From an uncultured Acidobacteriota bacterium (GTDB taxonomy: Bacteria > Acidobacteriota > UBA6911): a stretch of 37,262 nucleotides of DNA. The notes under the pieces are model-generated. The model was not told the origin of the DNA. It made no database searches and saw only the letters and a program-made list of their open reading frames with translations. Each line of letters begins with the position of its first letter. Within the stretch, counting starts at the first letter, position 1. Both the position numbers and the translations under genes were made by a program. Below are positions 1 through 31,123 of the stretch, in pieces. The stretch is taken from assembly GCA_964637825.1 (NCBI GenBank), contig CAZWXG010000005.1, positions 1 to 37,262 of the forward strand, in the 5' to 3' direction.

Positions 1-2
1 AG

Positions 3-632
3 TGGGGGGACGACGTCTGGATCAACGATCCCTACGGCCGCAACTTTGCCGGGCTACCGCCAGCCAAGTCCGGCGACTTCGCCTGGGTTCAACACATGGT
101 CAAGTCCATGGCCCGCAAGACCGGGCGCATGGCCGTGGTGCTTCCCCATGGCGTGCTGTTCCGCATGTCCAAGGAGGGCGAGATCCGCCGCAAGCTGCTG
201 GAGATGGACCTGCTCGAAGCGGTGATCGGTCTCGGCCAGAACATTTTCTACGGGACCGGTCTCGCGCCCTGTGTACTGGTCTTCCGGGACAGCAAGCCCA
301 AAGCCCACCGCCAGAAGGTGCTGTTCATCGACGCATCGAAAGAGTTCAAGACCGGCCGCGCCCAGAACGAACTGCTGCCCGAACACGTGGACAACATCCA
401 TCGCTGGTACGAGGGCTATCAGGATGTCGAAGGGGTCTGCCGGGTGGTCACGCTCGGCAAGATCCGCGAAAACGATTTCAACCTGAATATCCCCCGCTAC
501 GTGGAGCCGGTGATCGAGGAGGAATCGATGACCATCCACCAGACCATCGCCAATCTCAAGGATTCGCTGCAGGCGGCGTATGCGGCCGAGGATCGGCTGA
601 AAGATTTGCTGGTTCGGGAAGGCCTGTTGTGA
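3..632 (+). CDS. hsdM: Type I R-M N6-adenine DNA methyltransferase subunit (HsdM paralogue 1); 5' end lies outside the window
   Basis: Frame 3 is open from the window edge (WGDDVWINDPYGRNFAGLPPAKSGDFAWVQHMVKSM...) to TGA 630-632. Track ORF 96..632 is only the part from an internal Met. It has C-terminal HsdM hallmarks: AVVLPHGVLFR, GLGQNIFYGTGLAPCVLVF, VLFIDAS, NDFNLNIPRYVEP. It is colinear with the next gene, about 45% identical over about 165 residues in a hand alignment. Confidence 0.9.
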   Translation, partial: WGDDVWINDPYGRNFAGLPPAKSGDFAWVQHMVKSMARKTGRMAVVLPHGVLFRMSKEGEIRRKLLEMDLLEAVIGLGQNIFYGTGLAPCVLVFRDSKPKAHRQKVLFIDASKEFKTGRAQNELLPEHVDNIHRWYEGYQDVEGVCRVVTLGKIRENDFNLNIPRYVEPVIEEESMTIHQTIANLKDSLQAAYAAEDRLKDLLVREGLL

Positions 633-2215
633 AGGAAAACATTTCTCAATCCCAACTCGAATCCTATCTCTGGGGTGCCGCCACCTTGCTGCGTGGTTAC
701 ATCGACGCCGGCGACTACAAGCAGTTCATCTTCCCGCTGCTCTTCTACAAGCGCCTTTGCGACGTGTACGACGAGGAGATGTCCGATGCGCTGAATGAAT
801 CCGGCGGCGATCAGAAATACGCCGCGCTTCCTGAGCAGCACCGCTTCCAGATCCCGGAGGACGCCCGCTGGAGGGCCACCCGCACCAAGGTCAAAAACGT
901 GGGCAGGGCCATCCAGGACGCCCTGCGGGCGATTGAAACAGCCAACCCCGACACCCTGTACGGTGTTTTTGGTGATGCCCAGTGGACCAACAAGGACCGT
1001 CTGCCGGACCGAATGCTGCGCGAGCTTATCGAGCACTTCAGCTCGCGGACGCTTTCGCTCGCAAACTGCCCGGAGGATGAGTTGGGCGTGGGTTATGAGT
1101 TTCTGATCAAAAATTTCGCTGACGATTCCGGTCACACCGCTGCGGAGTTCTATACCAACCGCACCGTAGTCCATCTGATGACCGAGATGCTCGAACCCAA
1201 ACCGGGTGAGTCGATCTATGATCCCACCTGCGGTTCGGCGGGCATGCTGCTCTCCGCCGTCGCCCACCTGAAGCGGCAGAACAAGGAGTGGCGGAACCTG
1301 CGGCTATTCGGCCAGGAGCGCAACCTGCTCACCTCGGCCATCGGTCGGATGAACCTGTTCCTGCACGGCATCGAGGACTTCCGCATCGTCCGGGGCGATA
1401 CCCTGGCCAATCCCGCCTTTGTCGAAGGCGACCGGCTCATGCAGTTCGATGTGGTCCTGGCCAATCCGCCGTACTCCATCAAGCAGTGGGACCGCGATGC
1501 CTGGTCCGCCGATCCGTGGGGCCGGAACATCTACGGCACGCCGCCCCAGGGCCGCGCCGACTATGCCTTCTGGCAGCACATCATCAAGAGCATGAAGGCC
1601 AAGAGCGGCCGCTGCGCCATCCTGTTTCCGCATGGCGTGCTCTTCCGCAACGAAGAGTCGGCCATGCGCGAGAAGCTGGTCGCCCACGACGTGGTGGAGT
1701 GTGTGCTGGGCCTCGGTCCCAACCTCTTTTACAACTCGCCCATGGAAGCCTGCGTCGTCATCTGCCGGATGAACAAGCCCAAGGAGCGCAGGAAAAAGGT
1801 GCTCTTCATCAACGCGGTGAACGATGTGACCCGCGAGCGGGCGCAGAGCTTCCTCACCGACGACCACATCCAGCGCATTGTCGCCGCCTACCAGGCTTTC
1901 GGTGACGAGGACGGCTTTGCCCGGGTGGTCGGCAATGACGAGATCCGGGAGAAAGCCAGCAATCTCAGCATCCCGCTCTACGTGCGGGCGGACAACATAA
2001 ACGGCAATGGCAACGGCGCGGCCGAAACGGTCAGCCTCAAGCAGGCCATTGCGAACTGGCAGGAAAGCTCGATGGCATTGCGGGAGTCGATGGACGGTCT
2101 TTTTAAGGTACTTGAAAAAGGACTGTCCGCAGATGGGCGCAGATTAAAAACCGATTCAGAAAATCTGCGTGAATCTGCACAATCTGCGGATTCAATAGGG
2201 AGAACAGCTCAATGA
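629..2215 (+). CDS. hsdM: Type I R-M N6-adenine DNA methyltransferase subunit (HsdM paralogue 2), full length, 528 aa
   Basis: GTG 629 overlaps the upstream stop (GTGA), with GGGAAGG 8 nt upstream. The N-terminal domain reads SQLESYLWGAATLLRGYIDAGDYKQFIFPLLFYKRL (HsdM_N-like). Motif I is DPTCGSAGML and motif IV is LANPPYS. C-terminal matches are FPHGVLFR and NLSIPLYV. Codons 2-628 of track ORF 2..2215 are out-of-frame read-through of the upstream gene. Confidence 0.93.
   Translation: MKENISQSQLESYLWGAATLLRGYIDAGDYKQFIFPLLFYKRLCDVYDEEMSDALNESGGDQKYAALPEQHRFQIPEDARWRATRTKVKNVGRAIQDALRAIETANPDTLYGVFGDAQWTNKDRLPDRMLRELIEHFSSRTLSLANCPEDELGVGYEFLIKNFADDSGHTAAEFYTNRTVVHLMTEMLEPKPGESIYDPTCGSAGMLLSAVAHLKRQNKEWRNLRLFGQERNLLTSAIGRMNLFLHGIEDFRIVRGDTLANPAFVEGDRLMQFDVVLANPPYSIKQWDRDAWSADPWGRNIYGTPPQGRADYAFWQHIIKSMKAKSGRCAILFPHGVLFRNEESAMREKLVAHDVVECVLGLGPNLFYNSPMEACVVICRMNKPKERRKKVLFINAVNDVTRERAQSFLTDDHIQRIVAAYQAFGDEDGFARVVGNDEIREKASNLSIPLYVRADNINGNGNGAAETVSLKQAIANWQESSMALRESMDGLFKVLEKGLSADGRRLKTDSENLRESAQSADSIGRTAQ
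2126..2190 (+). promoter_or_regulatory. Array of five GCAGAT/ATCTGC motifs at about 10-bp spacing, able to form a nested hairpin, just upstream of the dinD SD and start
   Basis: TCCGCAGAT (2126-2134) and GCGCAGATT (2137-2145) lie on the top strand. Inverted copies are AATCTGCG (2162-2169), AATCTGCA (2172-2179) and AATCTGCGGA (2181-2190). 2126-2134 is the perfect reverse complement of 2182-2190. 2137-2145 pairs with 2162-2170 at 8/9 positions plus a G:U. The function is not established. Confidence 0.45.
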
Positions 2216-3084
2216 AACCAGAAACCGTTCAGAAACTGCAAAGCCGGTTTGACGCCCTGAGCCAGACCCTACCCGACGAAGGTATTGAATTCTGGTTCGC
2301 CCGCGATCTGATGGAACCTCTCGGCTATGCCCGCTGGGAAAACTTCCTGACCGCCATTAAGCGCGCCATAGAGTCTTGTGAAACAACGGGTTACAAAGCG
2401 GACGATCATTTTCGTGGCGTCACGAAAATGATCGAGATCGGCAAGGGTGGCCAGAGACCGGTGGAAGACTTCATGCTCACCCGCTACGCCTGCTATCTGA
2501 TAGCCCAGAACGGCGACCCACGCAAGGAACCCATCGCTTTTGCGCAGAGCTACTTTGCCATCCAGACCCGCAAGCAGGAACTGATCGAGGATCGGATGCG
2601 CCTGCAAGCCCGGCTTGATGCGCGGGAACGGCTGCGGGAGTCGGAAAAAACGCTATCCCAGAACATTTATGAGCGCGGCGTTGATGATGCCGGTTTCGGC
2701 CGGATTCGGTCCAAAGGAGATGCGGCGCTCTTTGGCGGGAATACAACCCAGGTGATGAAGGATCGCTACGGAATCACCAAAACACGCCCACTGGCCGACT
2801 TCCTACCGACCCTGACCATAGCCGCGAAAAACCTGGCCACCGAGATGACCAATCATAACGTACAACAGGAGGATCTGTGGGGCGAACACGCCATTACCAG
2901 CGAGCATGTGCAGAACAGCGTGAGTGTGCGCAACATGCTTGGACAACGCGGTATCAAGCCGGAAAAACTTCCACCAGAAGAGGACATCAAGAAGTTGGAA
3001 CGTCGGGTGAGATCTGATGAAAAACGACTGGAAAAACAGTCGGGAAAACTGCCTGTTCACATTCTCAAGGATGAAGAGAAATGA
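2212..3084 (+). CDS. dinD: DinD-family protein (DNA-damage-inducible protein D homologue), R-M-linked
   Basis: ATG 2212 overlaps the hsdM stop (ATGA), with AGGGAG at 2197-2202. Recognisable similarity to E. coli DinD along the N-terminal two thirds: ARDLMEPLGYARWENF, IESCETTGYKADDHF, MLTRYACYLIAQNGDPRKEPIAFAQSYFAIQTRKQEL, LFGGNTTQVMK. Confidence 0.85.
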   Translation: MKPETVQKLQSRFDALSQTLPDEGIEFWFARDLMEPLGYARWENFLTAIKRAIESCETTGYKADDHFRGVTKMIEIGKGGQRPVEDFMLTRYACYLIAQNGDPRKEPIAFAQSYFAIQTRKQELIEDRMRLQARLDARERLRESEKTLSQNIYERGVDDAGFGRIRSKGDAALFGGNTTQVMKDRYGITKTRPLADFLPTLTIAAKNLATEMTNHNVQQEDLWGEHAITSEHVQNSVSVRNMLGQRGIKPEKLPPEEDIKKLERRVRSDEKRLEKQSGKLPVHILKDEEK

Positions 3085-5408
3085 TCAAGCGAATTAATGT
3101 GCTAAAAGGAGTCGGCCGTTTTTCCGCACTGAACCCCATGCGAGGCACGGAAGGCAATTTTTCCAGTTTGAACGTGATTTACGCGAGCAATGCATGTGGG
3201 AAAAGTACCCTGTGCGATGTGTTCCGTTCTCTTGGTACCGGCAACCCCGCTTATGTAATCGGCCGAAAAAGACTTGGATCAGACGTGCAGCCAGAAGTTG
3301 TCGTTTTGCTAGAAGGTGGACAAGCAACCCGTTTCCATGACGCTCATTGGCATGAGCGTGATAATTGTCCGCCGATTCATGTCTATGATGACCGTTTTGT
3401 AGCAGAAAATGTTTTCATCGGGCATCACATCAGCGTTGATCAGCGCCGTAACTTATATGGGCTGGTAATCGGCGATCAAGCCATCGCATTGAAACAGGCT
3501 GTCGATACGGCAGAGCAGCAACTAAGCAACGCCACCGCTGAGGTCAATACTGCGCAATCAAACCTCACAAAGCTCATTCCCACTGGTCACACCATAGACT
3601 CGTTCAGAAATCTTGCCTCTGTAGATGATGTGGACACCAAAATCGATGAAGCAGCCAGCGATTTGAGGACAGCCGAACAAATAAAAACAAAAGCGGCTGC
3701 CATTCGGGCTCGCAGGCCACTGGCTACATTACCGATAGCTGAAGTTCCAGAGACATTGGATTGGGTATTGAGCTCGACACTCGATACAGCTTCTTTGGCT
3801 GCGGAAAAAAAGATCAGGAATCACCTCGCCGCCACCTCTCGAGGGCTTGCATTAAGCTGGGTCAAACAAGGTTTCGATGCTCAAAGCAGTACAGCTTGCC
3901 CACACTGTGGGCAGGATATGCAGGGTCTGGATATTCTGGATGCATATCGTTCGTTTTTCTCCGGCGAACTGCAAGCGCAGGAACAGCTTCGGGAATCAAC
4001 GAAGTCTGCTGTCCAGGGCGCATTTGGTGAAGCTGCGCAAAATCAGATTAGGCAAACCCTCACCTCTCACAAGACCGAACAGGACTGGTGGAAGGACGCT
4101 GCTGGTTTTGAATTTGTGTTACCGGAAATTGATGACATTGAAACCATAATCGCTTTGCTGCAAGCCGCTCATCAGGCGATAGATTCTGCATTGGCACGAA
4201 AGCAGGCAAACCCGGGAAGCGAAGCCCCCCTGACCGCTGAAGAGTCCGCCGCAGTAACTTCTTGGAATGAGAAGACTGCCGCACTAAAAGCGTACAATGA
4301 AGCTTTGACTAAGATAAACGGTGAACTACAAAATCGCCAGGCTAATGCTGGAGTGATTGATCTGTCACCGTTACAGCAAAGATTGACTGGATTGAATGCT
4401 GCCAAGAAACGGCATGAGCAGGTGACCGTAGATGCTTACGCAGCATACGATGTGGCTACCCGTCAGAAAACGACAGCTCAACAGGAGAAGCAACGAGCCA
4501 ACGAAGCGCTTCGTGAGCAATCCAATCAACTTTTCGAGCGTTATGGCGCACGAATTAATGAATTCTTGACGCTTTTTGGTGCGGATTTCCGAATTGTCAG
4601 TGACGGGGTAACCTTCAGGGGTGGTCCATCCGGTCAACTCGCGATCGAGCTAAGAGGAGAACGGGTTTCTGCTACACCAGAATCTGCGTCTGACCCATCT
4701 CAAGTTTCCCTAGCAAATACGCTCAGTGGCGGCGATCGCAGCGCATTGTCCCTCGCATTTTTCCTGGCCAAGGTGGAAATGGCGTCCGATGCAGGTAGAT
4801 CAGTCGTAGTTTTCGACGACCCCTATCATAATCAGGATCGCAGTCGCCGCCAATGTACTATCGAAAGAATTCATCACCTTGCCGGAATTGTTAATCAGTG
4901 CTTTGTGTTTTCGCATGACCTCGAATTCGCCCGAGCGGTTGAGAGGCGCCCCGGGACGCAAGCGAAGACCTTCGTCCTCAATCCACTCATTGCCCCGGCA
5001 ACCCTCGAAGCGCAGCCGTTTCCGCCTCTTCCCAGTCAAGCCTATTTGAAGAACTATCATCTCCTGCATAATTATTCGGAGAATCCCGCCGATCATCTTC
5101 AGCGCCTCAAAGAGGTAGCAGATACGCTTCGTATCATCTTGGAGGAGTACCTGCACCTTAAATTTCCTAAAGCATGGGTAGAGAACGATTGGCTGGGTGA
5201 CATGATTCGTAAAATTCGCGAAGCACAAACCGGAACGCCGCTATCACATTGCCAACCCTTGGTTGAGGAGCTTGCGCATATCAATACGTACAGCCAGCGT
5301 TTTCATCACGGCGGGACTGGCGAGGTCGCCGACGAACCAGAAGTCAGGGAGCTTAAGACTTATGTAGATAGAACTCTGAAAGTGATTCACGCGGGAGGGA
5401 ATATATGA
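3081..5408 (+). CDS. AAA_13-type ABC/SMC-like ATPase with coiled-coil insert and CxxC hook; RloC/PrrC-like candidate anticodon nuclease
   Basis: ATGA overlap with dinD. P-loop ASNACGKST (aa 35-43). Long helical, Q/A/E-rich insert (aa about 130-500) carrying CPHC (aa 273-276, nt 3897-3908). ABC signature LSGGD (aa 548-552). Walker B VVVFDDP (aa 575-581). H-loop FVFSHD. C-terminal domain of about 130 aa with LRIILEEY (R-x3-E) and downstream His residues (HINTYSQRFHHG), resembling the PrrC/RloC nuclease-domain arrangement as I recall it. Confidence 0.72.
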   Translation: MIKRINVLKGVGRFSALNPMRGTEGNFSSLNVIYASNACGKSTLCDVFRSLGTGNPAYVIGRKRLGSDVQPEVVVLLEGGQATRFHDAHWHERDNCPPIHVYDDRFVAENVFIGHHISVDQRRNLYGLVIGDQAIALKQAVDTAEQQLSNATAEVNTAQSNLTKLIPTGHTIDSFRNLASVDDVDTKIDEAASDLRTAEQIKTKAAAIRARRPLATLPIAEVPETLDWVLSSTLDTASLAAEKKIRNHLAATSRGLALSWVKQGFDAQSSTACPHCGQDMQGLDILDAYRSFFSGELQAQEQLRESTKSAVQGAFGEAAQNQIRQTLTSHKTEQDWWKDAAGFEFVLPEIDDIETIIALLQAAHQAIDSALARKQANPGSEAPLTAEESAAVTSWNEKTAALKAYNEALTKINGELQNRQANAGVIDLSPLQQRLTGLNAAKKRHEQVTVDAYAAYDVATRQKTTAQQEKQRANEALREQSNQLFERYGARINEFLTLFGADFRIVSDGVTFRGGPSGQLAIELRGERVSATPESASDPSQVSLANTLSGGDRSALSLAFFLAKVEMASDAGRSVVVFDDPYHNQDRSRRQCTIERIHHLAGIVNQCFVFSHDLEFARAVERRPGTQAKTFVLNPLIAPATLEAQPFPPLPSQAYLKNYHLLHNYSENPADHLQRLKEVADTLRIILEEYLHLKFPKAWVENDWLGDMIRKIREAQTGTPLSHCQPLVEELAHINTYSQRFHHGGTGEVADEPEVRELKTYVDRTLKVIHAGGNI

Positions 5409-6568
5409 GTTCCCTGAAGCCCGGCTGGAAGATGGTGAAGTTCGGCGAGGTGGTGAAGAACGCCAACCTCGTGGAGCGTGATTCCGAGGTAAATGGCGTC
5501 GAAAGAATAGTCGGGCTTGAACACATCGACCCCGAGAATCTGCACATTCGGCGCTGGAATTCCGTAGCAGATGGCACCTCGTTTACTCGCAAATTCGTAC
5601 TGGGCCAGACTCTCTTCGGCAAGCGCCGGGCCTATCAACGCAAGGTCGCCTATGCCGAGTTTGAAGGCATTTGCTCGGGGGACATCCTGACGTTCGAACC
5701 GAAGAATAGAAAGGTTCTACTGCCCGAGCTTCTGCCATTTATCTGCCAGAGCGATGCCTTTTTTGATCATGCACTTGGCACCTCAGCCGGTTCGCTGTCA
5801 CCGAGAACCAGTTGGACCGCATTGCAAGATTTTGAATTCCCGCTGCCACCGCTTGATGAACAGAAGCGCATTGCCGAGATCCTGTGGGCGGCGGATGAGG
5901 CGGTGGAGCAATGGCGATGCGTTTATTCAGTTCTAAACATATTGATATCCGTTCACAGAGTGGAATTTTTCTCCAGAAAGAATTGGCCAACAAAGAAGCT
6001 GAAAAACCTATTTTCCGTTCAACTTGGAAAAATGCTGTCACCAAAGGCCAAAACGGGAAATTCATCATTTCCATACTTGGCCAATTACAATGTCCAATGG
6101 GATCGTATTGATCTGGAAAAGGTCCAGGAAATGGACTTCTCTGAAAAAGAGCGTGAGAAGTTTGCACTGGCCCCAGGAGACATTCTTGTCTGTGAAGGGG
6201 GCGAGGTAGGACGCAGTGCAATATGGCATAGGGAAATTGCAAATTGCTACTACCAAAAGGCACTGCATCGACTTCGGCCTATTTCCCATTTCTCATCGGA
6301 AGTAATGCTGCAATTTATGATGTGGGCTGACAGGAAAGGATTATTCAAAGCTCTTACAGGACATTCCACCATAGCCCATCTAACTGCAATCAAATTTAAA
6401 GAAATGGATGTGCCTGTACCGTCTGATAAAGAACAAGCCCTCGTGGAGCTACTTTTCAGGGAGTTGAAGGCGGCGAGGCCCATAATATCAGAGCAAATCG
6501 CTAAGACGACGGAACTGAAGCAGTCGTTGTCATGTGGCCTGCTTAGTAATGGAGTTTGCCATGTTTAA
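5405..6568 (+). CDS. hsdS: Type I R-M specificity subunit HsdS (two target-recognition domains)
   Basis: ATGA overlap with the upstream gene, with GGGAGGG 5 nt upstream. TRD1 reads GWKMVKFGEVV...GDILTFEP. The central conserved helix reads LPPLDEQKRIAEILWAADEAVEQ. TRD2 reads WPTKKLKNLFSVQLGKMLSP...GDILVCEGGEVGRSAIW...YYQKALHRLRP. The distal conserved helix reads VPSDKEQALVELLFREL. Confidence 0.92.
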   Translation: MSSLKPGWKMVKFGEVVKNANLVERDSEVNGVERIVGLEHIDPENLHIRRWNSVADGTSFTRKFVLGQTLFGKRRAYQRKVAYAEFEGICSGDILTFEPKNRKVLLPELLPFICQSDAFFDHALGTSAGSLSPRTSWTALQDFEFPLPPLDEQKRIAEILWAADEAVEQWRCVYSVLNILISVHRVEFFSRKNWPTKKLKNLFSVQLGKMLSPKAKTGNSSFPYLANYNVQWDRIDLEKVQEMDFSEKEREKFALAPGDILVCEGGEVGRSAIWHREIANCYYQKALHRLRPISHFSSEVMLQFMMWADRKGLFKALTGHSTIAHLTAIKFKEMDVPVPSDKEQALVELLFRELKAARPIISEQIAKTTELKQSLSCGLLSNGVCHV

Positions 6569-9515
6569 CGAAGAAAACACTGTCGATCAGATGGTTCTCG
6601 ACACGCTCTGCGGCGGCGTGACTTCGAACATGGTTGCCGAAGAGCTTGCGAGCTACGGCGGCGAAGTCAAAAGCTGGCGCTTCGTGTCCACCGAGGAGCT
6701 GCCCCGTCAGCACTCCGACGTGCTGGTGGAGTCGATGGTGCGCGACGCCCTCATCCGCCTGAACCCGGAAATCAAGGCCCAACCTGACCGCGCCGACGAG
6801 GTGCTCTACCGCCTGCGGACCATTCCGCTGTCGGTGCAGAGCGAAGGCCTGGTGCGGGCCAACGAACTGTTTGCCGAATGGCTGCGGGGCGAGAAGTCCA
6901 TGCCCTTCGGCGAGCGCGGCGAACATACGCCGGTGCACCTGATCGACTTCGAGAATCTCAGCAACAACGATTACGTGGTCACCAACCAGTGGGTCTATCC
7001 GATCAAGGAAGGCGGCCGCCGCTTCGACATCATTATGCTGGTCAACGGTATCCCGGTGGTGGTCGGCGAGGCCAAGACGCCGGTGCGCCCGGCGGTGACC
7101 TGGGTGGACGGGGCCAGTGACATCCACAACGGCTACGAACAGAGCGTGCCGCAGATGTTCGTGCCCAACGTCCTCTCCTTTGCCACCGAGGGCAAGTGCT
7201 ATCGCTACGGCTCGGTGCGCATGCCCATCGATATCTGGGGGCCGTGGCACGAGGGCGAGAACAAGGCCGAGGGGACGATTGCGGACGTGCAGCGCTCCAT
7301 CCGCTCCATGCTGCGCCCCCATGTGGTGCTGGACATCCTGCAGAACTTCACCCTGTTCGCCACCGACAAGAAGCACCGGCGCATCAAGATCATCTGCCGC
7401 TATCAGCAGTACGAAGGCGCTAACCTGATGGTGGCCCGCGTGGTCAAGGGCTATCCCAAGAAGGGCCTGATCTGGCACTTCCAGGGCTCGGGCAAGTCGC
7501 TGCTGATGGTATTCGCGGCGCAGAAGCTGCGGATGCACCGCAAGCTCGGCAACCCCACGGTGATGATCGTGGTGGACCGCATCGACCTGGACACCCAGAT
7601 CACCGCCACCTTCAACGCCGCCGATATTCCGAACATGATCGGAGCCGCCACCCGGCAGGAGCTGCAAGGCCTGCTGGCGGCCGATACCCGCAAGATCATC
7701 ATCACCACCATTCACAAGTTCGGCGAGGCGGACGGCCGCCTGAACGAGCGTTCGAACATCATCGTGATGGTGGATGAGGCGCACCGCACCCAGGAAGGCG
7801 ACTTGGGGCGCAAGATGCGCGACGCGCTGCCTAACGCCTTTCTCTTTGGTCTGACCGGTACGCCGATCAACAAGCGGGACCGCAACACCTTCTGGGCCTT
7901 CGGCGCGGACGAGGATGAGCAGGGCTATATGAGCCGCTACTCGTTCCAGGACTCGATCCGGGACAAGGCCACGCTGCCGCTGCATTTCGAGGCGGTAGAC
8001 GTGAAGCTGAACATCAACAAGGACGCCATTGACGAAGCCTACTCCCAGATGACCGATGAGCTGAGCGAGCTGGATCGTGACGACCTGGCCAAACGGGCCG
8101 CCAAGATGGCGGTGCTGATCAAGGCCCCGGTGCGGGTGAACGCCATCTGCCAGCACATCGTCAAGCACTTCCAGGAGAAGGTGGAGCCGAACGGCTTCAA
8201 GGCCCAGGTGGTGACCTTCGACCGGGAGTGCTGCGTGCTCTACAAGAAGGCCATGGACGAGTTGGTCGGCCCGGAGGCCAGCGCCATCGTCATGCACACC
8301 CAGGGCGGAAAGTCCGATCAGTACGCGGAATGGAAGCTGGCCAAGGACGAGGAGGAAAAACTCCTCGACCGTTTCCGCGATCCGATTGACCCGCTCAAGT
8401 TCCTGATCGTCACCTCCAAGCTCCTGACTGGCTTCGATGCGCCCATTCTGCAGGTGATGTACCTCGACAAGCCGATGAAGGATCACAACCTGCTGCAGGC
8501 CATCTGCCGCACCAACCGTGTCTACCCCGGCAAGACCCACGGCCTGATCGTGGATTACCTGGGCATCTTCGATGACGTGGCCACGGCCCTCGATTTCGAT
8601 GAAAAGGCGGTGCAGAAGGTCATCACCAATCTGGACGAGCTCAAGAAGGAGCTGCCCGGCGTGGTGGCGAGATGCCTGGCGTTCTTCCCTGGCGTGGACC
8701 GCACCGTTGGCGGCTACGAGGGGCTGATCGCGGCCCAGGATTGCCTGCCGGATAACGAGACCCGGGACAAGTTCGCGGCGGAATACTCGGTGCTCTCCCG
8801 TCTGTGGGAGGCGCTGTCTCCCGATCCCTGTCTCGGCCTTTATGAAAAGGACTACAAGTGGCTGACCCAGGTCTATGAGTCGGTGAAGCCGCCGAGCGGC
8901 AACGGCAAGCTGCTCTGGCACGCCCTGGGGGCCAAGACCATCGAGCTGGTGCATGAGAACGTGCATCTGGAGACGGTGCGCGACGATCTGGACACCCTGG
9001 TGATGGACGCCGAGGTCCTCGAAGGGCTGCTCGATGCCAAGGACCCGGACAAGAAATCCAAGGAAATCGAGATCAAGCTCATCGCCCGCCTGCGCAAGCA
9101 CAAGGACAATCCGAAGTTTGTCGCCCTGGGCGAACGCCTCGAAAAGCTCAAGGAGCGGCACGAACAGGGCCTGCTCCACAGCCTCGACTTCCTCAAGGAG
9201 CTGCTGACCCTGGCCAAGGAGGTCGTCCAGGCCGAGAAGCAGGTGGACCCGGTCGATGAACAGGCCAAGGCCAAAGCGGCCCTGACCGAACTGTTCGCCG
9301 AGGTGAAGAACGGCAAGACGCCGATGGTGGTCGAGCGGATCGTGACCGACATCGACGAGATCGTGCGCCTGGTCCGGTTCCCCGGCTGGCAAAACACCAA
9401 GGCCGGAGAGCGCGAGGTCCAGAAGGCCCTGCGCAAAGTGATTTACGTGAAGTACCAGGTCAAGGATCAGGATCTGTTCGACAAGGCGTTCGGATATATC
9501 CGGCAGTACTATTGA
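6561..9515 (+). CDS. hsdR: Type I restriction enzyme R subunit HsdR (SF2 helicase/endonuclease)
   Basis: ATG 6561 is preceded by GGAG (6551-6554, 6-nt spacer) and overlaps the hsdS stop by 8 nt. The alternative upstream start 6534 has no SD. Nuclease-type N-terminal region (FDIIMLVNGIPVVVGEAK). Helicase motif I FQGSGKS. Motif II MVDEAHRTQ. LFGLTGTPI. Motif VI-like LQAICRTNR. C-terminal helical domain. Confidence 0.93.
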   Translation: MFNEENTVDQMVLDTLCGGVTSNMVAEELASYGGEVKSWRFVSTEELPRQHSDVLVESMVRDALIRLNPEIKAQPDRADEVLYRLRTIPLSVQSEGLVRANELFAEWLRGEKSMPFGERGEHTPVHLIDFENLSNNDYVVTNQWVYPIKEGGRRFDIIMLVNGIPVVVGEAKTPVRPAVTWVDGASDIHNGYEQSVPQMFVPNVLSFATEGKCYRYGSVRMPIDIWGPWHEGENKAEGTIADVQRSIRSMLRPHVVLDILQNFTLFATDKKHRRIKIICRYQQYEGANLMVARVVKGYPKKGLIWHFQGSGKSLLMVFAAQKLRMHRKLGNPTVMIVVDRIDLDTQITATFNAADIPNMIGAATRQELQGLLAADTRKIIITTIHKFGEADGRLNERSNIIVMVDEAHRTQEGDLGRKMRDALPNAFLFGLTGTPINKRDRNTFWAFGADEDEQGYMSRYSFQDSIRDKATLPLHFEAVDVKLNINKDAIDEAYSQMTDELSELDRDDLAKRAAKMAVLIKAPVRVNAICQHIVKHFQEKVEPNGFKAQVVTFDRECCVLYKKAMDELVGPEASAIVMHTQGGKSDQYAEWKLAKDEEEKLLDRFRDPIDPLKFLIVTSKLLTGFDAPILQVMYLDKPMKDHNLLQAICRTNRVYPGKTHGLIVDYLGIFDDVATALDFDEKAVQKVITNLDELKKELPGVVARCLAFFPGVDRTVGGYEGLIAAQDCLPDNETRDKFAAEYSVLSRLWEALSPDPCLGLYEKDYKWLTQVYESVKPPSGNGKLLWHALGAKTIELVHENVHLETVRDDLDTLVMDAEVLEGLLDAKDPDKKSKEIEIKLIARLRKHKDNPKFVALGERLEKLKERHEQGLLHSLDFLKELLTLAKEVVQAEKQVDPVDEQAKAKAALTELFAEVKNGKTPMVVERIVTDIDEIVRLVRFPGWQNTKAGEREVQKALRKVIYVKYQVKDQDLFDKAFGYIRQYY

Positions 9516-9665
9516 GCGGCGCTATGGATGGTTTCAAGCCCACATTCACCCTCACCAACCGACAGATCTCCCCGATCGCCCGCATCGAGCGGGCGCGGGC
9601 GGTAACGCCGCTTTCCAGGTTCGCGCGCCCTCGCGCCTTCGGGTGCAAAGAAGAGGTGTCCAGGG

Positions 9666-10736
9666 ATGAGAAAGAACAAAAAACAGAAGAGCCTTGGAAA
9701 AAAGGAGCTTTCGATCATCCGTTCCTCTGCCGCCGAATATCTGACCTTTGTCGCGGCCAGCGGCAGCGGTGGCGTTGAGGCGGTCTATGCCGACGAAAGC
9801 ATCTGGCTGACCCAGAAGATGATGGGGGTGCTTTACGATGTTGAGACCCACACCATCAACTACCACCTGAAAAAGGTGTTCTCCGACAGCGAGTTGCAGG
9901 AGGATTCAGTTATTCGAAATTTTCGAATAACTGCCGGCGACGGCAAGAACTACAACACCCTGCACTACAAGCTGCCTGCCATCATCGCCGTGGGGTACAA
10001 GGTCAACTCAGAGCGTGCCGTGCAGTTTCGCAAGTGGGCCACGACCATCATTGAGGAGTACACCATCAAGGCCTACGTCATGGACGACGAACGCATCAAA
10101 AGCGGCGGCTCCATCCTCACCGAACAGTACTTTGAAGAGCAGTTGCAGCGCATCCGGGAGATCCGCCTCTCCGAGCGCAAGTTCTACCAGAAAATTACCG
10201 ACATCTACGCCACCGCCATCGACTACGATTTCACCGCCCAGGCCACCATGCGCTTTTTCGCCACCGTACAGAACAAGCTGCACTGGGCGATCCACGGCCA
10301 GACGGCGGCGGAGGTCATCGTCAACCGCGCCGATGCCAAAAAACAGCATATGGGCCTGGCCACCTGGAAGGATGCCCCAAAAGGGAAAATCCAGAAGTTC
10401 GACGTCAGCATAGCCAAGAACTACCTGACCGAAGAGGAAATGGCGCAGCTGGCCCGGCTGGTGAACGCCTATCTCGATGTGGCCGAAGACATGGCCCTGC
10501 GCAAGATCCCCATGACCATGCAGGATTGGGAAACCCGCTTGAATCGCTTTATTGCCGCCACCGACCGCGAAATTCTTCAGGATGCCGGGAAGGTGACGGC
10601 GGAGATCGCCAAGGCCCACGCCGAAAGCGAGTTCGAGAAATACCGCATCGCGCAGGACCGGCTGTTTGAAAGCGACTTCGACCGGATGGTGAAGCAGATC
10701 GAATCAGCCGGAGATGAAAAACCGGATGAAGAATAG
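9666..10736 (+). CDS. rhuM: RhuM-family protein (virulence_RhuM / R-M-associated)
   Basis: 356-aa ORF. Family-typical stretches: WLTQKMMGVLYDVETHTINYHLKKVF, NTLHYKLPAIIAVGYKVNSERAVQFRKWAT, LSERKFYQKITDIYATAIDYD, FFATVQNKLHWAIHGQTAAE, YLTEEEMAQLARLVNAYLDVAE. Confidence 0.85.
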   Translation: MRKNKKQKSLGKKELSIIRSSAAEYLTFVAASGSGGVEAVYADESIWLTQKMMGVLYDVETHTINYHLKKVFSDSELQEDSVIRNFRITAGDGKNYNTLHYKLPAIIAVGYKVNSERAVQFRKWATTIIEEYTIKAYVMDDERIKSGGSILTEQYFEEQLQRIREIRLSERKFYQKITDIYATAIDYDFTAQATMRFFATVQNKLHWAIHGQTAAEVIVNRADAKKQHMGLATWKDAPKGKIQKFDVSIAKNYLTEEEMAQLARLVNAYLDVAEDMALRKIPMTMQDWETRLNRFIAATDREILQDAGKVTAEIAKAHAESEFEKYRIAQDRLFESDFDRMVKQIESAGDEKPDEE

Positions 10737-10740
10737 CCCT

Positions 10741-10837
10741 GCCGACTTGGGGGCTGACTTGAGGTGTGACTTGGGGGGCAACTTGCGACAAACTCGCGAC
10801 ATGGCCTGCGACACCGAGCTGTGATATGAGCTGCGAC
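10741..10837. repeat. Degenerate tandem repeat with 12-13-nt period (about 8 units) between rhuM and fic
   Basis: The units read gccGACTTGGGG / gctGACTTGAGG / tgtGACTTGGGG / ggcAACTTGCGA / caaaCTCGCGAC / atggCCTGCGAC / accgaGCTGTGAT / atgaGCTGCGAC. There is no start codon in the repeat frame. Confidence 0.6.
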
Positions 10838-10966
10838 ATCTCAGAGCCGCCAGGCGGGCACAAGCCGAGGGTGGCGAAGCCGGGTTTTGGCAGTTCGATT
10901 GGGCGAAAATGGATATCTCCATAATGGTACCTCGCAAATGGGTGTAAATGGGCGTAACATTGGTTC

Positions 10967-12016
10967 ATGCTGCGGACTGAAACCATCCGGATCACCCCTG
11001 AGATCCTGAGCCTCATCGCGGGGATCGACGAGTTCAAGGGCGCCTGGCGCGCGTTGCGCAACCTGGCGCCGGAGCGCCTGTCGGCCCTGCGCCGCGTGGC
11101 CACCATCGAGAGCATCGGCTCCTCCACCCGGATCGAGGGGAGCAAACTGTCCGACCGGGAAGTGGAGCGGTTGCTCTCGAACCTGGAGATCAAATCCTTT
11201 GCCACCCGCGACGAGCAGGAGGTGGCCGGCTATGCCGAACTGATGGACCTGGTGTTCTCGTCCTGGCGGGACATCCCGTTCTCCGAGAATCACATCAAAC
11301 AGTTGCACCAGATCCTGCTGCGCTACAGCGAAAAGGACATCTGGCATCGCGGCAAATACAAGACCCACCCGAACAGCGTCGCCGCCTTCGATGAGACCGG
11401 AGCACAGATCGGTATCGTGTTCCAGACCGCTGCGCCCTTCGACACCCCCCTCCTGATGACGGAACTGGTCGCCTGGGTGAAACGGGAGCGCGATGCGGCC
11501 CGACTGCATCCGCTCCTGATCATCGCCCTGTGCGTCGTCGTTTTCCTCGAGATCCACCCGTTCCAGGACGGTAACGGCCGGCTCTCCCGCGTACTGACCA
11601 CGCTCCTGCTCCTCGAGGCCGGGTACGCCTATGTGCCTTACAGTTCCCTGGAAAGCGTGATCGAAGGGAGCAAGGAAGCCTATTACCTGGCGCTCCATCA
11701 AACCCAGGGCACGATCCGCACCGGGTCGCCGGACTGGCAGCCGTGGCTCCTGTTTTTTCTCCGTTCCCTGGCCGAGCAGGTAAGGCGCCTGGAGAAGAAG
11801 GTCGAGCGCGAGAAGGTCGTCCTGGCCGCCATGCCGGAACTGCAACTTCAGATCGTCGAGTTCGCCCGCGAACACGGCCGCGTCACCATCGGGGAGGCTA
11901 TCAGGCTGACCAGCGCCAGCCGCAACACGCTGAAAGTGCATTTCCGTGCACTGGTCGAACGCGGCACGCTGAACCGGCACGGCGCCGGCCGCGGGGTTTG
12001 GTACGACCTGCGCTGA
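10967..12016 (+). CDS. fic: Fic-family protein (AMPylase-type) with N-terminal inhibitory helix and C-terminal wHTH-like domain
   Basis: Canonical Fic motif HPFQDGNGRLSR. Upstream STRIEG matches the (S/T)xxxE(G/N) inhibitory motif, a class II arrangement. The C-terminal segment IVEFAREHGRVTIGEAIRLTSASRNTLKVHFRALVERG looks like a winged helix. Confidence 0.9.
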   Translation: MLRTETIRITPEILSLIAGIDEFKGAWRALRNLAPERLSALRRVATIESIGSSTRIEGSKLSDREVERLLSNLEIKSFATRDEQEVAGYAELMDLVFSSWRDIPFSENHIKQLHQILLRYSEKDIWHRGKYKTHPNSVAAFDETGAQIGIVFQTAAPFDTPLLMTELVAWVKRERDAARLHPLLIIALCVVVFLEIHPFQDGNGRLSRVLTTLLLLEAGYAYVPYSSLESVIEGSKEAYYLALHQTQGTIRTGSPDWQPWLLFFLRSLAEQVRRLEKKVEREKVVLAAMPELQLQIVEFAREHGRVTIGEAIRLTSASRNTLKVHFRALVERGTLNRHGAGRGVWYDLR

Positions 12017-12074
12017 ACGATCGATCCGTCAAGTCCAACCCCCGTTCAGGGATTGAATCAAGGAAAGAGTTTTC

Positions 12075-12383
12075 ATGGACACTGACGATTTGAGTGAAAA
12101 ATCCTGGGCCCTCGTCGTCCTTGCCGCCTGCGTCTCGGATACCCTGAAAAGCGAGCTGGGTGCCATGGCCAGCCGGTTTCGGTCCGAGGACGAATGGCTG
12201 CGCGGGGTTCGGGCCCATATGGAAAGGATCGCCGAAAATCCGGAGGCGTATGTGGAATATTGGGATCTTGAAAACGAGGAGGGGGTCACGCCGGAACTGA
12301 TGGCGCGCTGTGCGGCCGACCTTTGCCGCCGGGTGGATGAAATCCTGGTGCTGCCGATGAACCGGCGCGGGGCCGGGGCCTAG
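12075..12383 (+). CDS. Hypothetical acidic 102-aa protein
   Basis: ATG is preceded by AAGGAAAGAG. Codon usage looks coding and the ORF is co-directional with fic, 58 nt downstream. I recognise no family motif. Confidence 0.5.
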   Translation: MDTDDLSEKSWALVVLAACVSDTLKSELGAMASRFRSEDEWLRGVRAHMERIAENPEAYVEYWDLENEEGVTPELMARCAADLCRRVDEILVLPMNRRGAGA

Positions 12384-12402
12384 GAGGCCGGCCGGTCCGC
12401 GC

Positions 12403-12431
12403 ATGAAAGCCGGGGCGGATTGGGGTATGAT
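12403..12431 (+). promoter_or_regulatory. Candidate sigma70-type promoter for the antiporter gene
   Basis: ATGAAA (12403-12408), 17-nt spacer, TATGAT (12426-12431), 27 nt before ATG 12459. Motif match only. Confidence 0.3.
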
Positions 12432-12458
12432 GGTATTTTTTCGGGCTTGCGGGGGACT

Positions 12459-13430
12459 ATGCTGATCGCGGTGGTGGCCATTGTCGTGGGGCTGGGGCTG
12501 CTGGTCTGGAGCGCGGACTGGTTCGTGGACGGGGCGGCGGCGCTGGCGCGCCACTTCGGGCTGCCGGCGCTGCTGATCGGGATGGTGATCGTGGGGTTCG
12601 GCACCTCGGCGCCGGAACTGGTGGTGTCGGCCATCGCCTCGATGGAGGGGAACCCCGGGATCGCGCTCGGCAACGCCTACGGCTCCAACATCACCAACAT
12701 CGCCCTCATTCTCGGGCTGACGGCGCTGGTCAGCCCCATCGCCGTCCATTCGAGCGTGCTGCGGCGGGAACTCCCGGTGCTGGCCGCCGTCACCGGGCTC
12801 GCCGCCTGGCAGGTGTGGGACGGGGAGATCACCCGGCTGGACGCGATGGTCCTGCTCCTGGTCTTCGGCATCCTGGTCGCCTGGTCGGTGCGCGAGGGGC
12901 TGCAGCGAAAGGCCGACGACTTCGGGCAGGAAATGGAGCGGGAACTCGGCATCCACCCCATGCCCCCCCGCCGGGCGGCCTTTCGCCTCCTCGTGGGCCT
13001 CGCGGTGCTGATCGCCAGTTCCCGCGCGCTGGTCTGGGGGGCGGTGGAGATCGCCCACCGTTTCGGCGTCAGCGACCTCGTCATCGGCCTCACCATCGTG
13101 GCCGTGGGCACCTCCCTGCCGGAACTGGCGTCGTCGCTCGCCGCCGCCCGCCGCAACGAACACGATATCGCACTGGGGAACATCATCGGCTCGAACCTGT
13201 TCAACACCCTGGCGGTGGTCGGCCTCGCCGGGGCGATTCACCCCCTGGCGGTCCCGCCCGAGGTCTTCTCCCGCGACATCCTGGCGATGTCGGCCCTGAC
13301 CCTTTCGCTATTCGTCATGGGTTACGGCTTCTGGTGCCCGCGCCGCATCAACCGCTACGAAGGGAGCCTGCTGCTCGTCGCCTACATCGGCTATAACGCC
13401 TGGCTGCTCCGGAGCGCATTCGCCGGCTGA
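12459..13430 (+). CDS. yrbG: CaCA-family calcium/sodium antiporter (YrbG-like)
   Basis: Two alpha-repeats, GFGTSAPELVVS...GNAYGSNITNI and AVGTSLPELASS...GNIIGSNLFNT. About 10 hydrophobic segments. ATG 12459 (MLIAVVAIVVGLG) is preferred over the upstream TTG/GTG-type ORF start at 12420. Confidence 0.88.
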   Translation: MLIAVVAIVVGLGLLVWSADWFVDGAAALARHFGLPALLIGMVIVGFGTSAPELVVSAIASMEGNPGIALGNAYGSNITNIALILGLTALVSPIAVHSSVLRRELPVLAAVTGLAAWQVWDGEITRLDAMVLLLVFGILVAWSVREGLQRKADDFGQEMERELGIHPMPPRRAAFRLLVGLAVLIASSRALVWGAVEIAHRFGVSDLVIGLTIVAVGTSLPELASSLAAARRNEHDIALGNIIGSNLFNTLAVVGLAGAIHPLAVPPEVFSRDILAMSALTLSLFVMGYGFWCPRRINRYEGSLLLVAYIGYNAWLLRSAFAG

Positions 13431-14350
13431 TTCCTCATCGCCTCGAGGACGGCGGCGACCGTGATGTTTCCCAGGCGGCCGGCCCCGTCCCGGAGGATGG
13501 TCACGCTCTCCCCGAGCGGGGCCCACTGCGCCGGCGCCGTCGGCCCGAACAGGGCCACGGTCGGGACCCCCAGCGCGGCACTGAGATGGGTCACCCCCGA
13601 ATCGTTCCCGACAAAAAAGCGACAGCGGGCCAGGATGCCGGAGAGCGGCCCCAGCGCGACCCCCTCGCACAGCAGCGACCCCGGGACTGCCTCGGCAATG
13701 CGCCGCCCCAGCCCCGCCTCGGCCGGGCCTTCCATGAGGATGAGCTCCAGATCGTTCCGGCGCGCCAGGAGGCGGGCCAACCCGATGAAATTTTCGGGGG
13801 GCCAGCGCTTCCCCGCCGACCCCGCCCCGGGGTGCAGCATCGCGAGCGCCTTCTGGCCGTCCCACCCTTGCTCCCGGAGCCAGCGCCCACCCGCCTCCAG
13901 CGCCGCGGCGCCCGGTCGGATGCCTGCGGGGGGCAGCTCTCGCGTCAGCAGAGGGGGGAGAGCGAGGGAATCGGCGAAGATGCGCGCGACGTGGCGCGTC
14001 TCCCCCGGCTCCGGGCGCCAGGGGGCGATGCGCGCCCCGGGGTGGAGGGAGCGCAGGTTGCGGACGAAGTCGGGGTTCGCGCTTCCGGTCCAGGAGACGA
14101 CCCGGTCATAGCTCTTCCAGAAACGGGTGTCCTCCTCCGAAGGGGGAGCGGGACGGTGGAGGCGGTGGAGCGGAAAGGCGGAAAGGGCGAGGACCCTTTC
14201 CGCGTACGGCGCGAGCAGCGGGCCCGGCAGGCCCGCGTCGCACGCCAGGGTGATCTCCGCCCCGGGCTCCGCCCGGCGGAGGGCCCCCAGCGCCGGGAGG
14301 GACAGGATGACGTCCCCCAGGGCGCCGGGGTGAAGGGCCAGGACGCGCAC
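13391..14350 (-). CDS. Glycosyltransferase family 9 (heptosyltransferase-like)
   Basis: GTG 14350 (VRVLALHPGALGDVILSLPAL) overlaps the apbC stop by 1 nt. GT9 hallmarks: HPGAGSAGKRWPPENF, FVGNDSGVTHLSAALGVPTVALFGPT. The rest of track ORF 13391..15244 is antisense or out-of-frame to apbC. Confidence 0.8.
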   Translation of the reverse strand: MRVLALHPGALGDVILSLPALGALRRAEPGAEITLACDAGLPGPLLAPYAERVLALSAFPLHRLHRPAPPSEEDTRFWKSYDRVVSWTGSANPDFVRNLRSLHPGARIAPWRPEPGETRHVARIFADSLALPPLLTRELPPAGIRPGAAALEAGGRWLREQGWDGQKALAMLHPGAGSAGKRWPPENFIGLARLLARRNDLELILMEGPAEAGLGRRIAEAVPGSLLCEGVALGPLSGILARCRFFVGNDSGVTHLSAALGVPTVALFGPTAPAQWAPLGESVTILRDGAGRLGNITVAAVLEAMRNQPANALRSSQAL

Positions 14351-15432: not shown

Positions 15433-15498
15433 AACACGATCCTTTTCAAAAAATGTGTAGGGTTGGAGCCACCGGGGGATTCCCCGGAAGGAGGAGGG

Positions 15499-16374: not shown

Positions 16375-16401
16375 CGCAACCTCCTCTCCCCGGGAGACCG
16401 G

Positions 16402-17559: not shown

Positions 17560-17870
17560 GCGACCTCCCGTTCCCGGCGAGCGCCCCTGTGGATTTCTCG
17601 GGATCTTCTGTTGATGTAAAGGATTGCCGGAATCCGGGAATCGCTCCGCCAACCGCGCCATTGTATGGCGAAGGCGGCAGGGGATCAATGAAAAGATTCC
17701 CCGCGGCCCGGGGCCCGTCCGCGCCGCGAACAGGCCTTTCACCGGGGGCCGCGGTGGCATAGAATGAAGTCAACGCATCCTGATCTGATCCGGAACCGGA
17801 GGACCTGCACCGTCCCCGCCGATCCGGCCCGCAGCGCATGAAGAAAGGTGAACTCCGTGGAGGATGGACC

Positions 17871-30983: not shown

Positions 30984-31123
30984 CCCCCGCGGGGGCGCGC
31001 CCCGGTCGCAGAATACACGGGCGCGGAAACACCTTTTGGCATTATAATCACCGTTGGGGGAGGACGCCCCCAAGGACCCGGGAAGGCGCGAGCAGCGGCA
31101 ACCCAGCAACAGGAGGTGGATCG

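Follow-up and report, generated by a model that had tools for sequence, protein, structure and literature searches.

Background

Type I restriction-modification (R-M) systems of the PacII type use two different methylase subunits. In the PacII M1M2S methylase, whose structures are 7VRU and 7VS4, M1 (motifs NPPF and AGEF) forms N6-methyladenine (m6A) and M2 (NPPY and AAEF) forms N4-methylcytosine (m4C) (PMC9613975). The genes of such systems follow the conserved order M1-M2-S-R (Morgan et al. 2016; PMC5100572), and 10 characterised systems were reported to contain interspersed open reading frames (ORFs) between M1 and M2 (6), between M2 and S (2), or between S and R (1) (PMC5100572). RloC is an anticodon nuclease that excises the wobble nucleotide of tRNA, with an ATPase responsive to zinc and DNA. 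RloC proteins are operationally defined by ATP-binding cassette (ABC) motifs, a CXXC zinc hook located in a coiled-coil insert, a C-proximal Arg-X3-Glu-X36-52-His triad, and a length of 658-897 residues (Davidov & Kaufmann 2008; PMC2610378). Here, we describe a locus that combines both types of systems in a 37,262-nt stretch of DNA (the window) from an uncultured Acidobacteriota bacterium (assembly GCA_964637825.1, contig CAZWXG010000005.1, positions 1 to 37,262 of the forward strand). The best explanation of positions 1-12016 of the window is that they form the right-hand portion of a defence island in the chromosome, the backbone of which is a PacII-type Type I operon. The overall picture that we favor, with a probability of about 0.75, is that of a PacII-type operon with a built-in RloC-family gene, a separately mobile DinD-family gene, and additional downstream cargo.

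Mutation of the Arg-Glu-His triad of RloC from G. kaustophilus led to the loss of both nuclease activity and toxicity, and the rare codons and poor initiation signals of RloC genes predict a low level of expression (PMC2610378). RloC reportedly also responds to DNA breaks (PMC3874168). The embedding of accessory genes in defence loci is known, and the PDC families are untested candidates of this kind (Payne et al. 2024 preprint, 10.1101/2024.01.29.577857). The presence of dinD and RhuM domains between Type I core genes has been the subject of incidental reports (PMC9881135).

A PacII-type operon with overlapping genes

The operon comprises six genes, which occupy the following positions of the window together with one domain considered below.

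3 to 632, plus strand: 3′ part of hsdM1 (last 209 codons, cut at the window edge); N6_Mtase profile positions 139-310, E = 1.3e-47
629 to 2215, plus strand: hsdM2; HsdM_N and N6_Mtase domains
2212 to 3084, plus strand: DinD-family gene; NF008573, Bro-N, and PDC-S13
3081 to 5408, plus strand: gene for an RloC-family ABC ATPase and putative anticodon nuclease of 775 residues; AAA_13, 107 bits; PDC-S06, E = 1.4e-60
5031 to 5405, plus strand: RloC-like C-terminal all-helical domain of that ATPase (residues 651-775), a putative anticodon-nuclease domain
5405 to 6568, plus strand: hsdS, with two target-recognition domains; Methylase_S in two stretches; PADLOC Specificity_I, E = 1.8e-114
6561 to 9515, plus strand: hsdR, restriction and translocase subunit; TIGR00348, 503.8 bits; HSDR_N, SWI2_SNF2, and T1R_D3-like domains

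hsdM2 encodes an AAEF motif (residue 171, positions 1139-1150) and an NPPY motif IV (residue 279, positions 1463-1474). A sequence search of the PDB identified PacII M2 (7vru_B) as its best match, with 654.9 bits versus 444.7 bits for the M1 chain A. In the related locus L001 (related loci are designated by L numbers), M1 showed the reverse preference, with a best match to PacII M1 (7vru_A; 607 versus 481.9 bits). The best PDB match of hsdS was PacII S (7vru_C; E = 1.6e-46). The portion of hsdM1 present in the window is 91-95% identical to the full-length M1 of L001, L042, L125, and L137; the full-length M1 proteins of L001-L005, L018, L027, and L042 all contain NPPF and are 78-93% identical to the window's portion. 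hsdR is 84-98% identical to its counterparts in related loci, and hsdS is 34-89% identical across them, variable as is usual for specificity subunits. Because of the motifs, the PDB matches, and the published gene order, we assign the backbone to a known non-canonical Type I subgroup: judged from these sequence features, the pair of hsdM genes characterises the system as PacII-type (m6A/m4C), with a heterodimeric M1M2S methylase. The initial description of the locus, made by a model that had only the sequence and a list of its ORFs (the first-pass annotation), had correctly listed two hsdM genes and had overlooked this hallmark. Readings of the tandem hsdM genes as a duplication, or as what is left of another R-M system, were rejected in favor of PacII-type M1 and M2. 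We infer that the enzyme performs m4C and m6A methylation of a bipartite site and restricts unmodified DNA.

All six reading frames are open, without internal stops, and each junction is an overlap. The sequence GTGA at 629-632 contains the stop codon of the first gene and the GTG start codon of hsdM2, ATGA overlaps are present at 2212-2215, 3081-3084, and 5405-5408, and ATGTTTAA at 6561-6568 forms the 8-nt hsdS/hsdR overlap, with the hsdR ATG at 6561 and the hsdS TAA at 6566-6568. A Shine-Dalgarno sequence (GGAG, 6551-6554) is located six bases 5′ of the hsdR ATG; alternative hsdR starts at 6534 or 6549 would both keep the overlap with hsdS. The GTG start of hsdM2 at 629 was set by the alignment of homologues, as position 2 of the PADLOC model corresponds to residue 5, which itself aligns with residue 12 of PacII M2 (7vru_B). 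An ORF of 737 codons in frame 2 (2..2215) was discarded as an artefact, since the hsdM2 frame is open 5′ of GTG 629 and overlaps the hsdM1 frame in GC-rich DNA. The same overlaps are present in related loci of other phyla, including L125-L143 and L001 (M1 5849-7366, M2 7363-9003, cargo 9000-10004, ATPase 10001-12328, S 12325-13512), and this recurrence indicates that the overlaps are more than chance. A pattern scan of positions 1-12.5 kb for promoters and terminators revealed nothing above the shuffled expectation. The five start/stop overlaps reported by the first-pass annotation were all found in place, and the family assignments bear out the Type I R-M operon that it described, in which two additional genes separate hsdM from hsdS; its proposal of a single translationally coupled unit is a reasonable deduction from the overlaps.

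Assignment of the ATPase to the RloC family

The ATPase encoded between the DinD-family gene and hsdS is, on sequence grounds, an RloC-family protein and a putative anticodon nuclease, because it displays the motifs used by the RloC authors and aligns over its full length with an RloC orthologue. The ABC head comprises Walker A (3180-3209), the ABC signature (4722-4742), Walker B and the D-loop (4803-4823), and the H-loop (4905-4919). It is split by a coiled-coil insert of ~365 residues (~3474-4574) carrying a CPHCGQ zinc hook (3897-3914). The C-terminal domain contains R684 (5130-5132), E688 (5142-5144), N735 (5283-5285), and H742/H743 (5304-5309). In an alignment of 21 ATPase homologues, extending down to 46% identity, the invariant residues included G40, K41, and T43 of Walker A, S549, G551, and D552 of the signature, D579-D580-P581, and S611-H612, in addition to the zinc hook C273-P-x-C276-G-Q, a putative zinc site as judged from sequence, and R684, E688, N735, and H743 in the C-terminal domain.

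A tblastn search of plasmids identified a 770-residue AAA ATPase on the Rhodoferax ferrireducens T118 plasmid, whose length, organism, and helicase-like flank fit entry 39 of Table S1 of Davidov & Kaufmann. BLASTP aligned residues 1-772 of the window protein with residues 1-770 of orthologue no. 39 (231 bits, E = 2e-69, 27% identity). All motifs lined up between the two proteins, those of the ABC head as well as R..E and N..RFHH in the C-terminal domain. Members of the family are named "wobble nucleotide-excising tRNase" by the Joint Genome Institute (JGI).

The AlphaFold2 model of the ATPase (predicted local distance difference test [pLDDT] score, 81.6) shows an SMC/Rad50-like head and a long coiled coil, with long helices (residues 132-498) flanking the zinc hook. 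Foldseek retrieved SMC/Rad50 heads with coiled coils, the best match being 5xei (E = 4e-9), and strong fold similarity was confined to the head and the coiled coil. A PDB sequence search with the whole protein returned only matches to the Rad50 signature region. Modelled separately, residues 641-775 form a five-helix domain (pLDDT, 85.8), whose top PDB fold match is the HEPN protein 2hsb (template modelling score, 0.60/0.64; root mean square deviation, 3.2); further HEPN proteins were present among the fold matches. The RloC nuclease domain itself is said to have been classified as HEPN-type by Anantharaman et al. in 2013.

The first-pass annotation had named the ATPase RloC/PrrC-like. The motifs and the full-length orthologue alignment support the first half of this designation. 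Membership in the PrrC family is excluded by the size of the protein, by the coiled-coil insert, and by the lack of a match to the PADLOC PrrC model even at E = 10. The window protein likewise did not match the PADLOC RloC model, which was rejected as counter-evidence, since the R. ferrireducens orthologue does not match that model either and has PDLC04895, a PDC-S06 model, as its best match. Because this RloC best-matches PDLC04895, the label "candidate" understates what the window ATPase is.

The DinD-family gene is a cassette of methylation-based defence loci

The product of the gene at 2212-3084 scored 382.6 bits against NF008573 over residues 2-280, versus an equivalog cut-off of 242. It also matched Bro-N (E = 1.8e-10), followed by a C-terminal region, and the PADLOC candidate family PDC-S13 (E = 4.3e-118), and it aligned end to end with E. 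coli DinD at 35% identity (E = 4e-52). Its first-pass identification as a DinD-family gene was correct. E. coli DinD reportedly inhibits, or otherwise acts on, RecA filaments (Uranga et al. 2011). No LexA box (CTGT-N8-ACAG, at most one mismatch) was detected at 1-12 kb in a search limited to the E. coli-type consensus, the promoter of the operon being located outside the window.

Database matches of the DinD protein exceeded 8000, and the best 120 were all at least 84% identical to it and originated from several phyla; their hosts included Synergistaceae, Desulfarculus, Chromatiaceae, Rhodocyclaceae, and Wallbacteria. The neighbours were surveyed for the 80 best metagenome matches among at least 352 that were confirmed; 65 of these loci were informative, having 1 kb or more of flanking sequence on one side. 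Pfam scans of the immediate neighbours revealed mainly Type I genes (N6_Mtase/HsdM_N, Methylase_S, EcoEI_R_C), Type III genes (N6_N4_Mtase upstream, ResIII/RE_endonuc downstream), and bacteriophage exclusion (BREX) genes (BrxC upstream, Eco57I/MmeI_Mtase downstream), with DUF6079 or RhuM genes found elsewhere. The downstream junction was a 4-nt or 1-nt overlap in 16 of 34 cases, and such overlaps were often seen at both ends of the gene in Type I, Type III, BREX, and DUF6079 loci. Because of the variety of its host systems and its extreme conservation, we conclude that this DinD is an independently mobile, promiscuous cassette of methylation-based defence loci, which matches both the PDC-S13 label and the concept of "guilt-by-embedding" (10.1101/2024.01.29.577857).

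In E. coli TW14425 (L124, NZ_CP127265.1 2188852-2201079), dinD is shortened (603 versus 825 nt) and adjoins an ISEc53 transposase gene and a ClbS/DfsB gene, and a reverse-transcriptase-family gene is located between slmA and pyrE. The neighbourhood of dinD in E. coli may be an insertion hotspot.

A dedicated DinD-RloC pair is not supported by co-occurrence

The first-pass annotation had proposed that DinD and the ATPase form a sensor-effector pair and that their genes should co-occur more often than by chance. A scan for relatives of the ATPase, restricted to one genome per species, yielded 36 loci. None of these (0/36) contained a DinD homologue, even at E <1. Exact-protein look-ups of ATPase relatives with 93-94% identity, among them those of Isoalcanivorax pacificus W11-5 and of numerous contigs from metagenomes, led to loci without DinD, in which hsdM2 overlaps the start of the ATPase gene. 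In the reverse direction, an RloC-family neighbour was found in two of the 65 informative DinD loci (L042 and L047) and accounted for one of 34 immediate downstream neighbours. L042 is the only repeat of the arrangement of the window, with identities of 93% for M1, 91% for M2, 90% for DinD, 77% for the ATPase, 34% for S, and 92% for R. L047 (2648-10308) comprises a DUF6079 gene (1276 residues), DinD, a 360-nt gap, and a gene for an 838-residue AAA_13 protein of the RloC family, just after which the contig ends. Co-occurrence above chance failed in both directions of the census, and a dedicated DinD-RloC pair is not supported. Literature searches uncovered no DinD-RloC link and no tested DinD-like defence gene.

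A conserved core with variable cargo

The order M1-M2-ATPase-S-R was found in all relatives at least 64% identical to the ATPase and provided with enough flank in the 36-locus scan (L001-L005, L018, and L027), with the exception of L015, in which the ATPase gene is 3′ of an EcoEI-type hsdR. M1-M2-RloC-S-R was also found in L042 and L125-L143, and the arrangement extends overall to several phyla; hosts of ATPase loci included Geopsychrobacteraceae, Halobacteroidaceae, Chlorobiota, and Desulfobacteraceae. The junction slots of the sister loci harbor different genes: one for a 334-residue protein without assigned identity in L001; IetA and an ORF6N/PDC-S05 protein in L027; DUF4062 and Schlafen-AlbA_2 proteins, plus a PRTase between S and R, in L018; and PDC-M11A/B between S and R in L003. 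Together, these observations identify M1-M2-RloC-S-R as a conserved core with variable defence cargo in its junction slots and DinD as the cargo of the M2/RloC slot.

Two genes 3′ of hsdR complete the island.

9666 to 10736, plus strand: RhuM-family gene, PADLOC candidate PDC-S05; Virulence_RhuM, E = 2e-106; PDC-S05, E = 1.4e-149
10967 to 12016, plus strand: Fic-family gene, SoFic-like; Fic, E = 6.3e-17; PADLOC SoFic, E = 1.3e-46

The RhuM gene begins 150 nt 3′ of hsdR and the Fic gene is the last of the island; metabolic and housekeeping genes are found from 12420 on, in a chromosome of 65-70% GC. The RhuM and Fic genes are best explained as further cargo of a similar kind.

Additional features were noted in the junctions of related loci. 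The M1/M2 slot is occupied by a 75-codon ORF without a Pfam match, overlapping both neighbours, in L125 (6273-6500), L137 (3693-3920), L138 (2129-2356), and L141 (659-886), by a 23S_rRNA_IVP (four-helix-bundle) gene in L131 (1268-1639), and by a DUF4062-HATPase_c_4-HTH gene in L003, L004, and L018; M1 and M2 of the window overlap directly. In L042 (region 14353-20046), the first 34 codons of hsdR (14353-14454) are located directly 3′ of hsdS and are followed by an ORF for an 881-residue DEAD/ResIII helicase (14426-17071) and by a complete hsdR from 17077, as if the S/R junction had been duplicated by cargo insertion. L125, from I. pacificus W11-5 (CP004387.1 1233380-1251707), contains M1-M2-RloC-S-R without DinD. 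Its upstream region encodes YagK_YfjJ_C, an AlpA-type HTH protein, an AAA_22 protein, and a divergent BrxR/WYL regulator, and directly 3′ of hsdR are a gene for a 720-residue N6_N4_Mtase and an 883-codon gene. The operon of L125 looks as if it were located in an integrated element.

Base composition and remainder of the window

GC content at third codon positions (GC3) is 0.78-0.87 for hsdM1, hsdM2, and hsdR of the window, with a dip to 0.63 for dinD, 0.47 for rloC, and 0.53 for hsdS. In nine related loci (L001, L002, L003, L005, L018, L042, L125, L131, and L137), GC3 was 0.34-0.48 for rloC, 0.58-0.85 for hsdM2 and hsdR, and 0.54-0.85 for hsdM1. A recent recombinational swap of dinD-rloC-hsdS was considered as the origin of the dip and was rejected for rloC, which shows it in all nine loci. 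Because it recurs whatever the GC3 of the M and R genes, low GC3 is a trait of the RloC gene family. Such a persistent dip agrees with the rare codons and poor initiation signals noted for RloC genes (PMC2610378) and fits the low-level expression of a toxic effector.

Scans for tRNAs and Rfam families detected in the window only an unrelated tRNA-Glu. This tRNA-Glu(CTC) gene (19979-20053, minus strand) overlaps the last ~34 nt of a plus-strand ORF (17838-20012) for a response-regulator/FHA/GAF/SpoIIE phosphatase, the true stop or start of which may differ. The segment 30001-31000 has the extreme values of the window for GC content (0.74) and AT skew (-0.29); it is located around a minus-strand ORF (30405-31109) with a GC3 of 0.74, lower than that of its neighbours.

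Proposed mechanism and alternative explanations

In the mechanism that we propose, the R-M enzyme would methylate its bipartite m4C/m6A site and restrict unmodified DNA, and the RloC-like protein, like PrrC of EcoprrI and the RloCs of G. kaustophilus and A. baylyi, would be an anticodon nuclease that is expressed weakly and kept latent. DNA breaks, failure of the linked restriction enzyme, or both would be sensed by its ATPase region with the Rad50-like zinc hook, as suggested by analogy to A. baylyi RloC and PrrC-EcoprrI (PMC3874168, PMC12707154). The nuclease would then cut the anticodon loops of tRNAs and stop translation, thereby providing a back-up abortive-infection layer. DinD, RhuM, and Fic would be independent accessory modules. 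With low confidence, DinD may be an autonomous Bro-N DNA-binding module acting on RecA or on DNA-break processing like E. coli DinD.

Several observations do not sit easily with this picture. Motif IV of the window's M1 falls outside the window, which contains only the C-terminal 209 residues of the protein. The C-terminal domain of the ATPase alone matched no profile in Pfam or PADLOC, and its similarity to HEPN proteins is statistically weak (E = 0.71 for 2hsb, every E value being ≥0.7). The distance between E688 and the histidine is 53 (H742) or 54 (H743) residues, just beyond the 36-52 of RloC, and only 8 of 73 RloC genes were linked to R-M systems (PMC2610378). The sample of DinD loci was skewed to close relatives, and many of its contigs were short. 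DinD and an RloC-family gene are adjacent in two independent cases, the L042 type and L047, and a local functional interaction between the two proteins is possible where they are neighbours.

Some of these points would also be expected if the AAA_13 protein were a non-nuclease, SMC/Rad50-like accessory ATPase of the R-M system, for example a sensor of DNA ends or loops modulating restriction or its alleviation, with a non-catalytic C-terminal domain. The lack of a profile match for this domain, its weak HEPN similarity, the triad spacing, the restriction of strong fold similarity to the head and coiled coil, and a conservation between M2 and S as tight as that of a subunit are all compatible with such a role. 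However, R684, E688, N735, and H743 are invariant among the 21 homologues, down to 46% identity, and align with R..E..N..HH of the listed RloC orthologue, mutation of the equivalent triad kills the activity and toxicity of G. kaustophilus RloC (PMC2610378), and the persistently low GC3 fits a toxic gene expressed at a low level. We consider a non-nuclease ATPase improbable. In a similarly improbable extension of the favored picture, the RloC protein of this multi-phylum clade would be physically bound to the PacII-type enzyme as an obligate part of it, a counterpart of PrrC in EcoprrI. M1M2S/R would keep it latent until anti-restriction proteins or DNA breaks set it free, and DinD cassettes in R-M and BREX loci would modulate the RecA or break signal and thereby tune the timing of break-sensing effectors or restriction alleviation. 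If this were true, DinD-RloC adjacency would be functionally meaningful, though not obligatory.

The dedicated pair suggested by the first-pass annotation, in which DinD would sense DNA damage or restriction status and control a translation-arresting ATPase on top of R-M, would account for the adjacency of the two genes with an ATGA overlap, for the repeat of the arrangement in L042 (DinD 90%, ATPase 77%), and for the second, independent adjacency in L047. The action that E. coli DinD reportedly exerts on RecA filaments (Uranga et al. 2011) would also be in keeping with it. So would the reported responsiveness of RloC to DNA breaks (PMC3874168). Against it, DinD was absent from all 36 ATPase loci, ATPases with 93-94% identity have hsdM2 directly upstream, RloC genes were found in only 2 of the 65 informative DinD loci and 1 of 34 downstream neighbours, and unrelated cargo occupies the same M2/RloC slot in sister loci. 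Moreover, DinD proteins are at least 84% identical (best 120) versus 45-94% for the ATPases, hence no co-evolution. This control relationship is very unlikely. The least probable of the explanations considered attributes selfishness to DinD, RhuM, Fic, and possibly RloC: as hitch-hikers or addiction modules, they would use the R-M operon to spread and persist and would not themselves contribute to defence. It would account for the extreme conservation and cross-phylum spread of DinD over many host systems, for its cassette-like junctions with start/stop overlaps at both ends, and for the duplicated S/R junction beside inserted cargo in L042; the PDC families are untested candidates, and a selfish benefit of embedding has been discussed (10.1101/2024.01.29.577857). 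Yet other embedded systems put to the test proved to be defensive, with PrrC as the textbook example, and HEC-01 to HEC-04, likewise embedded, have been described as phage defences (10.1101/2024.01.29.577857). Some cargo of sister loci (IetA, a retron-type PRTase, and Schlafen-like proteins) is already recognised as defensive, and selfishness and defence are in any case compatible.

Significance

Every element of the locus is of a described kind: a PacII-type Type I system, an RloC (8/73 being linked to R-M), and embedded defence candidates. Three results are modestly new. The M2/S ORF of a multi-phylum PacII-type clade is identified, from its sequence features, as a member of the RloC family; PDLC04895, the main PDC-S06 model, is the best match of a bona fide RloC orthologue; and pairing of DinD with RloC gave a negative result. 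The operon of the window offers a clean example of layered defence, with an m6A/m4C two-methylase Type I system, a built-in, putatively break-sensing tRNA nuclease, and swappable junction cargo. The M2/S ORF of the related M1-M2-S-R loci analysed here thereby receives an identity, as an RloC-family gene, unnamed ORFs having been reported in this slot for two of the ten systems of PMC5100572, and the "untested candidate" PDC-S06 is tied to a characterised family. This clade also provides a natural system for a question raised in the RloC literature, namely, whether RloC is governed by a linked restriction enzyme, like PrrC. As a caution, translational coupling and adjacency in defence islands do not alone indicate a functional pair. 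DinD is worth testing in its own right, given its extreme conservation inside R-M and BREX loci.

Comparison with known systems

The window shares with PacII-type systems two paralogous M genes, the order M1 (NPPF in full-length genes of related loci), M2 (NPPY, AAEF), S, and R, best PDB matches to PacII M1 (for the L001 copy), M2, and S, respectively, and extra ORFs between core genes. The published interspersed ORFs were without identity, whereas the M2/S ORF of the window and of its multi-phylum clade belongs to the RloC family.

As to the embedded genes, all three accessory genes match PDC-S13, PDC-S06, and PDC-S05 strongly (E = 4e-118, 1e-60, and 1e-149, respectively) and are nested in, or located directly after, a Type I R-M system, as in the definition of those families. 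The PDC families are single-gene candidates, and bona fide RloC orthologues evidently fall within PDC-S06. The DinD-family gene belongs to the same NCBIfam equivalog family as E. coli dinD, with 35% full-length identity between the proteins. E. coli dinD is an SOS-inducible, stand-alone chromosomal gene between yicC and yicG, whereas the window gene overlaps hsdM2, leaving no upstream promoter region of its own, and is part of a cross-phylum subfamily, conserved at ≥84%, that lives inside R-M and BREX loci.

The ATPase resembles described RloCs by its length (775 residues, within 658-897), its coiled-coil-split ABC head with a CXXC zinc hook, its R-x3-E...H residues, its full-length homology to orthologue no. 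39, and its low-GC3, rare-codon character. It differs from them by a triad spacing of 53-54 versus 36-52, by an identity of 27% to the listed orthologue, and by the embedding of the gene, throughout this clade, between M2 and S of a Type I operon, described RloCs being rarely linked to R-M. PrrC proteins comprise 341-416 residues and a PrrC box, without a coiled coil or zinc hook, unlike the 775-residue window protein, which has both, and EcoprrI is a Type IC system whereas the host R-M system is here of the PacII M1M2 type. The two loci have in common that a gene for an ABC ATPase with a nuclease domain, putative in the window, is embedded beside hsdS in a Type I hsd operon, and they plausibly share the logic of a back-up that would fire upon failure of restriction.

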